Assembly: GCA_013204385.1 (NCBI GenBank)
Contig: JABMNY010000029.1
Coordinates: 1 to 52,815 of the forward strand
Length of the DNA: 52,815 nt
From: Candidatus Uhrbacteria bacterium
Lineage (GTDB): Bacteria > Patescibacteriota > Patescibacteriia > UBA9934 > GWF2-40-263
Direction of reading: 5' to 3'
Shown piece by piece: positions 19,566 to 34,297 of this stretch; the first letter of the stretch is position 1, and the number at the start of each line of letters is the position of its first letter. Position numbers and translations under genes: made by a program. Under the pieces are notes generated by a model. The model searched no databases and had not been told where the DNA came from. It saw nothing but the letters and a program-made list of their open reading frames with translations.

Positions 19566-19640
19566 TGGTGTCCCTGGAGGGAATCGAACCCCCATCGTCA
19601 GCTTAGGACGCTACCGCTCTATCCGTTGAGCTACAGAGAC
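19566..19640 (-). tRNA. tRNA-Arg(CCT)
   Basis: GTCTCTG/CAGGGAC acceptor stem, anticodon loop gtCCTaa, GGTTCGATTCC, encoded CCA. Confidence 0.93.
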
Positions 19641-32887: not shown

Positions 32888-33087
32888 ATATGGAAAATAA
32901 AACGACGCCCTTATGGGGCGTTTTTCTGATTTACATCATCAAGAAGAAACACCCACCTATGGCGTTGTTGTTGTCATCTTAGATGTAGAATTTTGGAGTG
33001 ACATACCTAAATGACAAGTTAAAGACTTTTTGATGACTTGGCAAATGAACCTGTGGACGAAAAAAGCGTTATTCACAAAAACAAAAC

Positions 33088-33117
33088 AAAAACAGCACTT
33101 AATTGAGTGCTGTTTTT
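33088..33117 (-). terminator. Terminator downstream of the split tRNA
   Basis: aaaaacagcact-taattg-agtgctgttttt. Confidence 0.75.
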
Positions 33118-33137
33118 GTGGTGTCCCTGGAGGGAAT

Positions 33138-33225
33138 ATGGTTGCCAACAGACTCCACCATATTGCTCTCGTTCGCTCGGAATCATCCAAACTCCGTTTG
33201 TCTGTTCTCTCGCTCGCTCCAGCAT
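33138..33225 (-). mobile_element. 88-bp insertion in the T-loop of the split tRNA
   Basis: Interrupts GGTTCG|ATTCCC with AT junction redundancy. Contains GAGCGAGCGAG, GAGCGAACGAGAGCAATAT and a terminal hairpin. Confidence 0.7.
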
Positions 33226-33264
33226 CGAACCCCCATCAAGACCTTAGAAGAGTCCTGCTCTATC

Positions 33265-33441
33265 ATGAGATGAAGTGAGTGTACAAAATACATACCCCTT
33301 ACGATGGTGGCCTGAGCAGGACTTGAACCTGCAACCTTGAGTTTAGAACACTCCTGCTCTATCCAGTTGAGCTATCAGGCCAAGGGTGTAAGGGGTATGT
33401 ATTTTGTACCGAACGAGGCGATATGATCTGAGAATCAGATC
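33265..33441 (+). mobile_element. 177-bp insertion in the D-loop of the split tRNA, carrying a complete tRNA
   Basis: ATC junction redundancy, 22-bp perfect inverted repeats (33281-33302 and 33388-33409), CGAACGAGGCGATAT and terminal hairpin gatctga/tcagatc. Confidence 0.75.
33305..33381 (-). tRNA. Nested intact tRNA-Arg(TCT)
   Basis: GGCCTGA/TCAGGCC acceptor stem, anticodon loop gtTCTaa, GGTTCAAGTCC, encoded CCA; 77 nt. Confidence 0.92.
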
Positions 33442-33553
33442 CGTTGAGCTACAGGGACGAATATAAGAAAGTCTAGCGCAACGCAATCATAGCGAATCTT
33501 TCGAAAAAGAAAAAGCGACCGTGCGTTATGGTCGCATTGAGAGGAGTTTGGCT

Positions 33554-34297
33554 CTAGGAAGCACGCTCTCCAAGCTTGAGACTCAGAAGCGCCCTTGAAG
33601 AACCGCGATCCACGATAGGAGCATAGGCTTTGGACGACATGAACTGAGCCCTCAAAAGACGATGACGACGCTCAGTCTCCGCAGCATCGACCAGGACGAG
33701 TACACATGCCTGCGAAAGAGACTCACGCCTCAGTACCGTCTCGACCACCTTCCAGATGAGCCCCTGCAAAAGTGACTGTTCCCGCGAGATCCCAACCTCT
33801 CCGATCCAGAGATGATTGATGACCAGATAAGGACCTTCTCGACCAACCCGTGAGTAGATCTGACCAAGAAGGGTCATCGGCATGTTCGTGACACCAAGCA
33901 CAGTACTCGAGTCACATACGACACAGGTCGCGAAGCCAGCACACTGAGCGGGAGAGGTGAGACTCTGAGCCAGAGCAATGCCCCCAGCATTCAGGTACCG
34001 ACAAAGTTCCTCTCGAGCTGACTCCTCATCCCACTGAAGAACGACTGTTCCGCCACAGATTCTGAGACCGACTCTCTGGACACACTTCGCATCCCGTGGG
34101 GGACTCAGGTAGACATGTGCGCAGGAGGCACACACAGAATCATTCCGATGAGGCGCAGACCCGACCTCCTGAAGGAAGCCGTGGATCATGCTGTCTGAGA
34201 TCGTCCAGTTGATGGGCTTAGGTGGCGGAGGGGAAGAGAAGATCTGGATAGGCCGACGAGCGTCAGTCAGATAAGAATCAGGTTGAGCCACGTGCAT
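33554..34297 (-). CDS. Hypothetical protein (possible degenerate GNAT-like fold)
   Basis: 247-aa ORF with a GGAG RBS and its own promoter. The fold suggestion is weak. Confidence 0.55.
   Translation of the reverse strand: MHVAQPDSYLTDARRPIQIFSSPPPPKPINWTISDSMIHGFLQEVGSAPHRNDSVCASCAHVYLSPPRDAKCVQRVGLRICGGTVVLQWDEESAREELCRYLNAGGIALAQSLTSPAQCAGFATCVVCDSSTVLGVTNMPMTLLGQIYSRVGREGPYLVINHLWIGEVGISREQSLLQGLIWKVVETVLRRESLSQACVLVLVDAAETERRHRLLRAQFMSSKAYAPIVDRGSSRALLSLKLGERAS

Follow-up and report, generated by a model that had tools for sequence, protein, structure and literature searches.

A complete tRNA-Arg(UCU) gene nested in an interrupted tRNA-Arg(UCU) gene of a Candidatus Uhrbacteria bacterium: a probable disrupt-and-replace mobile cassette

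Bacterial genomes harbour several kinds of palindromic non-autonomous repeats, such as MITEs (miniature transposable elements with inverted repeats), repetitive extragenic palindromes (REP/REPIN), Rickettsia palindromic elements and the palindrome-associated transposable elements (PATEs) derived from IS200/IS605. tRNA genes are also targeted by prophages and genomic islands, which restore the tRNA by means of a 3'-part copy carried in their attachment site attP. In archaea and red algae, tRNA genes may contain multiple non-canonical introns or be split or permuted, with splicing at bulge-helix-bulge (BHB) motifs, and the group I introns of bacterial tRNA genes sit in the anticodon loop. Here we describe a locus in a 52,815-nt stretch of contig JABMNY010000029.1 of a Candidatus Uhrbacteria bacterium (the window), where a complete tRNA-Arg(UCU) gene lies within the D-loop of another tRNA-Arg(UCU) gene, which is interrupted a second time in its T-loop. 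The arrangement is best explained by what we call a disrupt-and-replace mobile cassette, an explanation that we consider probable.

Coordinates are those of the window, and the tRNA locus is read on the minus strand. G000 denotes the genome that holds the window; the other G and L handles denote related genomes, loci or metagenome contigs.

The nested locus, its empty counterpart and its cargo

When the three pieces of the outer gene (Table 1) are joined by coordinates, ARAGORN recognises the product as a 75-nt tRNA-Arg(tct) that folds into a normal cloverleaf. It is identical at 75/75 positions to an intact tRNA of G005, a genome of the same genus, and the 5' piece (33442..33458) equals positions 1-17 of that tRNA. 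Judged from these sequences, the join is far beyond chance. A preliminary description, made from the letters of this DNA, had proposed the same reconstruction from three minus-strand segments, with breaks of 177 nt in the D-loop and 88 nt in the T-loop, and extraction of the segments returned exactly its coordinates. It had further held that the joined gene, leaving aside the anticodon arm and the variable region, differs by one acceptor-stem base from the tRNA-Arg(CCT) at 19566-19640, which direct comparison confirmed, and that the D-loop insert contains a complete, divergent tRNA with the same anticodon. The latter is recognised by both ARAGORN and Rfam at 33305-33381 and has 70.1% identity (54/77) to the outer tRNA. 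With introns allowed, ARAGORN gave no call at the nested locus and, at other places in the genome, proposed two tRNAs with long introns that are implausible.

An uninterrupted form of this locus exists in a close relative. A search of 41 related genomes, followed by retrieval of the loci, placed the intact G005 tRNA in orthologous surroundings, with 84% identity over 495 nt downstream and 78% over 82 nt upstream; the 247-aa open reading frame (ORF) upstream in the window also has a homologue at the G005 locus (47% identical over 117 aa). Four more congeners possess uninterrupted genes of the 75-nt class that are 97.3, 94.7, 92.0 and 90.7% identical, and this class is present in all six other genomes of genus g1 that were compared. 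Since the G005 site is empty for both inserts and the congener genes are uninterrupted, the outer gene is the ancestral resident and both inserts are gains. The filled and empty states of one orthologous site are those of a mobile element, and the empty allele that the preliminary description had proposed to seek in relatives is thus provided by G005.

Mis-assembly, in which reads from two tRNA-Arg genes and repeats were joined into a chimera, could mimic such a layout, and the genome is indeed a metagenome-type assembly of 48 contigs in which tRNAs and repeats are frequent at contig ends. However, Logan contigs from four runs reproduce the locus: two cover all of 32950-33650 (701 nt) with one difference, and a contig of 369 nt bridges both inserts. 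The four runs belong to one study, possibly the source of the assembly; within that scope, the independent contigs answer the concern raised in the preliminary description that reads might not span the locus as assembled. Neither a joined nor an empty allele was seen among the contigs of the four runs (X1-X4). With the identical architecture present at 13 further loci of other assemblies, the chance that the nest is an artefact is practically nil. Position 33464, which lies outside the tRNA and six bases upstream of the first base of the outer gene, is G in the contigs of three runs and T in the window.

The nested tRNA differs in origin from its host gene. Its 77-nt class is the ordinary tRNA-Arg(UCU) of other genera (93.5% identity in G012, 89.6% in G015 and 87.0% in G017), where the loci look like those of normal genes, and by this comparison the inner tRNA is foreign to the genus. 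It is the sole tRNA-Arg(tct) found by ARAGORN in the 1.05-Mb, 97% complete genome; the host of the locus is a tiny, groundwater-type bacterium. Because ARAGORN called no tRNA-Phe, -Tyr or -Trp in the assembly, some tRNAs are possibly unassembled or interrupted. A weak tRNA-Tyr-like 3' part (18 bits), with the motif CTCGTTCGG before it, is located at G000 C41:100-271.

Table 1 Features of the nested tRNA-Arg(UCU) locus, in minus-strand order
Feature	Position	Strand	Remarks
Outer tRNA-Arg(UCU), 5' piece	33442..33458	-	17 nt; acceptor 5' strand, D-stem 5' strand, start of D-loop
D-loop insert	33265..33441	-	177 nt; D-type element, antisense to T-type, with tRNA cargo
D-type terminal hairpin	33425..33441	-	GATCTG..CAGATC; its first bases repeat the target's GAT
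Conserved D-type motif ..TCGCCTCGTTCG	33410..33424	-	complement of the T-type CCGARCGA.. motif
P2 inverted repeat, 5' arm	33388..33409	-	22 nt, perfect; encloses the cargo
Inner tRNA-Arg(UCU), complete, with CCA	33305..33381	-	77 nt; cargo; ARAGORN and Rfam
P2 inverted repeat, 3' arm	33281..33302	-	22 nt
D-type pyrimidine-rich end (..CACTCAC..)	33265..33280	-	complement of the GAGYGAG motif
Outer tRNA, middle piece	33226..33264	-	39 nt; rest of D-arm, TCT anticodon arm, variable region, T-stem 5' strand to ..TTCG
T-loop insert	33138..33225	-	88 nt; T-type element
Outer tRNA, 3' piece	33119..33137	-	19 nt; T-loop 3' half, T-stem and acceptor 3' strands, ACCA
Intrinsic-terminator-like hairpin followed by T run	33086..33119	-	common to the whole nested unit

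A family of structured miniature elements

The T-loop insert represents the simpler subtype, the T-type. Its 5' end, ATGCN, pairs with NGCA(A)T to form helix P1; the GA-rich strands GAGYGAGYGAG and CCGARCGAACGA surround P2, a hairpin that is perfectly paired yet hypervariable; and a terminal hairpin, P3, ends exactly at the junction. In the window, P1 is formed by 33225-33221 with 33167-33162 and P3 by 33161-33138, with P2 between the GA-rich strands and the CCGAGCGAACGA motif at 33180-33169. An alignment of 11 sequences has compensatory changes at 16 of 22 predicted pairs, and in a set of 45 distinct covariance-model matches double (compensatory) changes occur at all 22 pairs of the three helices. 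In the latter set 92% of the cells pair, as compared to 66% in shuffles (0/500 reach the observed value) and 35-44% with slid partners, the pairing figure being favoured by the fit of this alignment to the covariance model. The non-Watson-Crick cells (45 G.T and 28 A.C, out of 986) have little strand bias, which is not decisive, although as a sequence signature it fits a DNA palindrome better than an RNA. Two copies that follow tRNA-Leu(CAA) at the same gene position, one in G000 (C22:59713-59811) and one in its congener G005 (L042 1501-1601), have near-identical conserved strands and different P2 interiors, each a near-perfect palindrome; this comparison suggests a palindrome-preserving mode of change.

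More copies in this genome were found through short motif matches (blastn-short of the inserts, and exact motifs), no second full-length copy being obtained by blastn-short of the inserts against the genome. They adjoin tRNA-Leu(CAA), tRNA-Cys, tRNA-Gly, tmRNA, tRNA-Leu(TAG) and tRNA-Gln. The covariance model gives nine T-type matches in the genome, and the best match of model R1 is the T-loop insert itself (33138..33225, 79.9 bits). Across the order, the T-type occurs in 44 of 151 genomes with 0 to 10 copies per genome, and its distribution over the families is uneven: f1 27/65, f4 12/64, f7 3/4 and f5 1/5, with none in f2, f3 and f6. It is patchy even within genus g1 (2/6 other genomes), and in a sample of the phylum 3 of 150 other genomes contain it. 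Genomes rich in element copies (G048, G231, G005) exist beside empty ones (G003, G004, G008). The exact T-type pattern gave eight loci in a named genome collection, six of them in metagenome-assembled genomes of Candidatus Uhrbacteria, and viral contigs gave no match for either element pattern. At gathering thresholds, Rfam recognised only the four tRNAs of the window and neither insert.

Turned around, the D-loop insert has the same layout: a pyrimidine-rich end, P2, ..TCGCCTCGYTCGG and the terminal hairpin GATCTG..CAGATC. The difference from the T-type is that a whole tRNA occupies the P2 loop. Both inserts belong to a single family of miniature elements, non-coding and structured, and lie in opposite orientations. 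All D-type copies have the terminal hairpin, with variable stem and loop, and inspection by eye indicates that the bases beside it pair with the far end of the element across the junction in a covarying manner (ATCAC/GTGAT, ATCGT/ACGAT, ATCAT/ATGAT, TATTGC/GCAATA), by the same logic as P1 of the T-type. In the window, the last bases of the end at 33265..33280, together with the exon's GAT, can pair with the ATCAT beside the terminal hairpin, again by eye.

Being short, non-coding, multi-copy and patchy among close relatives, the family resembles MITEs. Classical terminal inverted repeats and a fixed target duplication were not found: the two ends differ (ATGC.. as against a terminal hairpin), and the junction repeats are inconsistent, from 0 to 3 nt, the T-loop junction of G152 allowing at most 1 nt. 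By eye, the element-oriented 3' flank is usually AT(T/C/G)(C/G), and the 5' flank varies (TTCG, GACG, CTCT). Hairpin-bearing ends and the lack of duplication would fit the IS200/IS605-type pattern, which also calls for insertion beside a short specific sequence; with a 5' flank that varies, the agreement is partial.

The conserved D-type motif gave 14 matches in 10 of 162 genomes, and the 5' junction pattern 10 matches in 9 of these 162, all in family f1; the reversed-pattern controls gave none in either case. Each of the 10 junction matches falls in a tRNA-Arg gene whose D-loop contains a second, complete tRNA-Arg with an identical anticodon. A metagenome scan returned seven contigs, all of them nests and three new (L106, L109, L107). 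With the window, 14 nested loci are available, all in tRNA-Arg (anticodons GCG, UCG, CCG and UCU), and the cargo anticodon equals that of the target in 14/14; as the genomes are related, counts of nests and elements are not counts of independent events. The 11 genome nests all have a cargo of 77 nt and a 5' arm of 59-68 nt, and in 10/11 the inverted repeat around the cargo includes 13-25 nt of uninterrupted perfect pairing. Three nests (window, G152 and G108) have a second insert in the T-loop of the outer gene. The metagenome contig L107 holds a three-level nest (approximately 940-1351), in which a cargo-bearing element sits in the D-loop of the cargo tRNA of another copy of the same element; the displaced tRNA copies share one D-stem change. 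Furthermore, the outer gene of G152 is 97.4% identical to the inner gene of G139, so the same variant is host in one nest and cargo in the other.

Cargo is absent from some D-type copies: the G005 nest contains one of these in tandem, G094 has two within a different repeat, and another is located at a tRNA-Gln 5' end. One further match to the D-type pattern, in a coding region, was dismissed as probably due to chance. A head-to-tail tandem pair of D-like units, each ending GATC..GATC, lies away from any tRNA at G000 C37:44644-44802. The tRNA-Arg(GCG) locus at G000 C27:3392-3800 consists of an intact nested gene, a split outer gene and a 5'-truncated third copy, the D-loop of which is interrupted by a cluster of GC-rich palindromes.

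Such nests could in principle have arisen in place, either by local duplication and rearrangement or by integrase recombination through the neighbouring Xer-type recombinase, as a tyrosine recombinase gene (Phage_integrase, 4e-42) lies 1 kb upstream of the window's nest. These genomes often contain partial tandem copies of tRNAs, and in the nests of G006, G060 and G000 C27 the inner and outer genes are nearly identical save for the acceptor stem. Nevertheless, the inner tRNA of the window is of the other class and resembles tRNAs of other genera, its outer pieces are complementary without any attL/attR repeat, and the insert ends bear the conserved motifs of the family. The recombinase is a conserved chromosomal neighbour, the G003 orthologue of which adjoins an uninterrupted tRNA, and L107 together with the swapped roles in G152 and G139 already points to a cargo element active at non-orthologous loci. 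We therefore regard an in-place origin as very unlikely.

The insertion sites of T-type copies were classified by eye for 29 loci. Thirteen lie in a partial copy of a tRNA or tmRNA 3' end that follows the intact gene and its terminator; two lie in a tRNA-Lys gene of full length with a damaged 3' end, next to an intact copy; one is the double nest of G152, which resembles the window; five are antisense at the 5' end of tRNA-Gln and one is antisense in a partial tRNA-Glu copy. All these tRNA-linked loci have an intact copy nearby. The remaining seven are away from tRNAs, and the three that were checked (Pfam) abut the ATG of genes for rpsL, a GHKL-ATPase and dCTP deaminase. T-type copies that end exactly at the ATG were seen at L051 (1501-1580), L063 (1501-1578, minus), L053 (1501-1574) and L060, the GHKL-ATPase being gyrB-like; the element is thus evidently tolerated as the last 75-80 nt of the leaders of essential genes.

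Both subtypes are found antisense at tRNA-Gln 5' ends, the loci being C15:2268-2358 and C35 near 4104 in this genome together with L026, L058, L059, L064, L066, L067 and L100. Since an 8-9-nt repeat of the first bases of the tRNA is present at both junctions, the exact insertion point at these loci is ambiguous. At several other loci a stretch of 30-40 nt separates the intact tRNA or tmRNA gene and its terminator from the T-type element. This stretch frequently matches the 3' end of the tRNA itself in reverse complement, creating a long palindrome through the terminator, and elsewhere it corresponds to the 5' half of the T-arm, again in reverse complement. A short ATGAGAA-like linker comes after it. 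Loci with such inverted copies are G000 C22:7140-7340 (tmRNA), C22:59700-59880 (tRNA-Leu CAA), C30:23040-23220 (tRNA-Cys) and C7:21560-21740 (tRNA-Gly), as well as L044, L047 and L054.

This distribution invites the question whether the family could be a selected RNA or DNA module of the host, such as a processing or expression signal, with the nest as a regulated two-gene unit. Conservation of sequence motifs and helices extends over families of the order, G000 and G012, two genomes of different genera, each have a copy after the tmRNA gene, and other copies abut the ATG of essential genes exactly. Against such a role, the element is patchy within the genus and ranges from absence to 10 copies, its orthologous sites are both filled and empty, it occurs in both orientations, in tandem arrays and in self-nests, and host copies decay around it. 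A selected host function is thus quite unlikely.

Decay of the outer genes and the case for a cassette

The fate of the outer genes bears on the choice between loss and continued use of the interrupted tRNA. With the inserts taken out, 8 of 13 outer genes are still called as tRNAs by ARAGORN (window, G000 C27, G006, G060, both of G048, L106 and L109). Even among these, the G048 gene with anticodon UCG has a D-stem mismatch, and the 5' and 3' acceptor strands of L106 no longer match. The five that are not recognised are damaged in different ways. In G005, the 5' piece is mutated, a second element is present, a 20-nt palindrome occupies the anticodon loop and the D-stem is changed; in G139, a 30-nt palindrome sits in the anticodon loop and the 3' end is lost; the T-arm of G108 is destroyed by another insert; G015 lacks everything 3' of the cargo; and the anticodon stem of G152 contains one more mismatch. 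The heavily damaged G005 nest appears, from near-identical inserts and alike downstream terminators, to be the same tRNA-Arg(GCG) locus as the intact-looking nest at G000 C27.

As an alternative to a DNA-level cassette, the preliminary description had put forward a new intervening sequence, the removal of which would let one transcript yield two tRNAs. Under this model both inserts would leave the RNA through self-cleavage or with the help of an enzyme, and both products would be tRNA-Arg(UCU). The flawless outer pieces at the window, identical to a functional orthologue, would suit such a mechanism, as would the number of outer genes that are still recognisable elsewhere and the fold of each insert, which joins its first and last bases with P1 stacked on P3. 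On the other hand, the inserts are one element in opposite orientations, so that their RNAs would be mutual complements. Copies of the element are also found away from tRNAs, within truncated tRNA copies and as tandem arrays, and an interrupted tRNA copy is always accompanied by an intact one at the loci seen. The exon integrity expected in relatives for a BHB intron is lacking, as 5 of 13 nests have an outer gene that is mutated, truncated or re-invaded, and the acceptor strands of L106 are mismatched.

Processing factors were likewise not found. Neither RtcB (PF01139) nor EndA (PF01974) gave a match in the 97% complete genome, and the controls matched 10/14 genomes and four archaea, respectively. 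With Rfam covariance models run over 33000-33600 at E up to 10, the inner tRNA and weak unrelated matches were the only results, with no group I core and no ribozyme or intron family. Because of the decay in the nests and the absence of RtcB and EndA, the outer genes are better seen as relics that decay at different rates than as genes maintained by splicing. The intervening-sequence model is not supported on these counts, and its probability is very low. The more specific version, in which a new bacterial mechanism uses the end-to-end folding to remove the inserts and lets one promoter serve two tRNA-Arg(UCU), has a slim chance indeed; if true, the elements would form a novel class of intervening sequence acting at the RNA level, one also able to sit in leaders directly before start codons.

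Two further known mechanisms had been set aside in the preliminary description, and rightly so. A group I intron does not account for breaks in the D-loop (after 33442) and T-loop (after 33226), and integration at att sites leaves traces that are missing here. The inserts, of only 177 and 88 nt, contain no integrase. The only ORFs of at least 60 aa that overlap them, 32957-33190 (-) and 33030-33278 (+), both cross outer pieces or the terminator, and in the one of the two that was scanned Pfam found no family. Nor are there direct attL/attR repeats, the outer pieces being complementary, non-duplicated parts of a single gene.

According to the disrupt-and-replace explanation, the elements would constitute a mobile family of non-coding, hairpin-structured units of approximately 80-105 nt. 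A D-type copy with a horizontally derived tRNA-Arg(UCU) between its P2 arms would have entered the D-loop of the resident gene at the DNA level, and a cargo-less T-type copy would have entered the T-loop in the opposite orientation. The latter may have entered a gene made redundant beforehand, or may have persisted in one; T-type copies would be retained only in redundant tRNA copies. Insertion can be envisaged to occur without target duplication, beside A(T)YC-like sites, by means of folded hairpins and an enzyme supplied in trans. The inner tRNA would be transcribed from the promoter of the outer gene, ended by the outer terminator and probably released by ordinary tRNA end-processing, for which the 22-bp flanking stem may act as a processing helix. 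As the cell has no other decoder of this kind than the inner tRNA, the cassette could not be lost without a replacement. Cargo and target anticodons presumably match because a mismatched hit in a single-copy essential tRNA would be lethal. The outer gene would now be a young pseudogene.

The corresponding model of the preliminary description, an element that disrupts a tRNA and supplies the isoacceptor, is supported by the gain of DNA at a site that is empty in G005, by the common family of the two inserts and their cargo-less copies, by the foreign cargo, by the recurrence of the arrangement in 14 nests, including the self-nested triple one, and by the decay of host genes.

A mobilising enzyme was sought among the Y1 transposases. 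Y1_Tnp (PF01797) is encoded in 110 of the 162 genomes of the order and by a single gene in this genome, and it is missing in 10 of 44 element-positive genomes compared to 52 of 162 overall, which reveals no association. Element-like ends were absent beside six IS200-type genes. A 221-aa Y1/RAYT-like gene lies between GC-rich REP-like palindromes at G000 C48:5210-5875 (L037 1300-1965). Arrays of similar palindromes follow tRNAs at the ends of contigs, including C2 and C19, and the same GC-rich palindromes are the small anticodon-loop insertions in the decayed outer tRNAs of G005 and G139. Y1/RAYT was set aside as an unlikely mobilising enzyme, since it is flanked by these other palindromes, has no order-wide association with the element and is not accompanied by element-like IS200 ends.

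Several points weigh against the disrupt-and-replace explanation. No transposase linked to the element family was found, nor was a long protein-coding form (left end to right end within 6 kb) present in this genome, and the explanation does not account for the entry of a tRNA into the central hairpin of the element. No promoter of its own was evident for the inner tRNA, and a simple sigma-70 scan upstream of the outer gene gave no promoter-like site, so that co-transcription of the inner tRNA is something that we infer. The nest census required an intact 5' junction and counts only nests that retain it. Most outer genes are still recognised by ARAGORN, and the three outer pieces at the window are perfect although the flanks differ by 16-22% from G005, which continued function would likewise predict. 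The preliminary description had stressed that the outer pieces lack evident decay and keep their CCA and terminator; this is true at the window, and a recent, undated insertion fits these flawless pieces as well as continued function does.

Implications and comparison with known systems

If a cassette of this kind is at work, it would show how a very small selfish element can enter an essential single-copy gene, namely by breaking it and carrying a working copy; because it does both, the host comes to depend on the invader. Such a process would drive horizontal replacement of tRNAs in the genome-reduced bacteria of the candidate phyla radiation, and the AGA decoder of the window is indeed of a foreign type. 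For genome annotation, nested and interrupted tRNA genes of this type go unnoticed or are miscalled with standard tools. The family, which is absent from Rfam, marks many tRNA genes, tmRNA genes and gene starts in this lineage, and its three-helix fold makes it a candidate for a new transposition mechanism.

With the group I introns of bacterial tRNA genes, the inserts share only their position as intervening sequences in a bacterial tRNA gene; they occupy the wrong loops, and at 88 nt, or 100 nt without cargo, they are far below the size of a group I core and have no Rfam match. The disrupted tRNA genes of archaea and red algae come closer in layout, with breaks in D- and T-loops and more than one per gene, and the long helix around the cargo resembles the helices that join split halves. 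Unlike those genes, the present one occurs in a bacterial genome in which EndA and RtcB were not found, its outer counterparts decay in relatives, and the inserts turn up in either orientation and at sites other than tRNAs.

Like tRNA-targeting integrative elements, the cassette has a conserved landing site in tRNA or tmRNA genes and brings a replacement tRNA sequence that spares the host. It differs in its size of approximately 100 nt plus cargo, in lacking an integrase and direct att repeats, in the use of a D-loop site, and in nesting a whole tRNA within the broken gene rather than duplicating a 3' part. The palindromic repeats resemble the element in being short, non-coding and multi-copy, with covarying stems, a patchy distribution and filled and empty sites, and in their ability to sit in RNA genes and beside coding genes. 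In contrast to them, the element has no terminal inverted repeats or consistent target duplication; it has a three-helix fold with GA-rich strands and a left end that pairs beside the terminal hairpin; it strongly prefers conserved tRNA loops; and one of its subtypes carries a complete tRNA gene. It also shows no association with Y1_Tnp, and no cognate transposase was found. In the titles and abstract openings of the literature searched, nested tRNA genes, insertions in the D- or T-loop of bacterial tRNAs and this element were not described. The palindromic repeats and the tRNA-targeting elements are the closest known systems, and neither of them combines a non-coding element of approximately 100 nt, insertion in the D-loop and a nested replacement gene.

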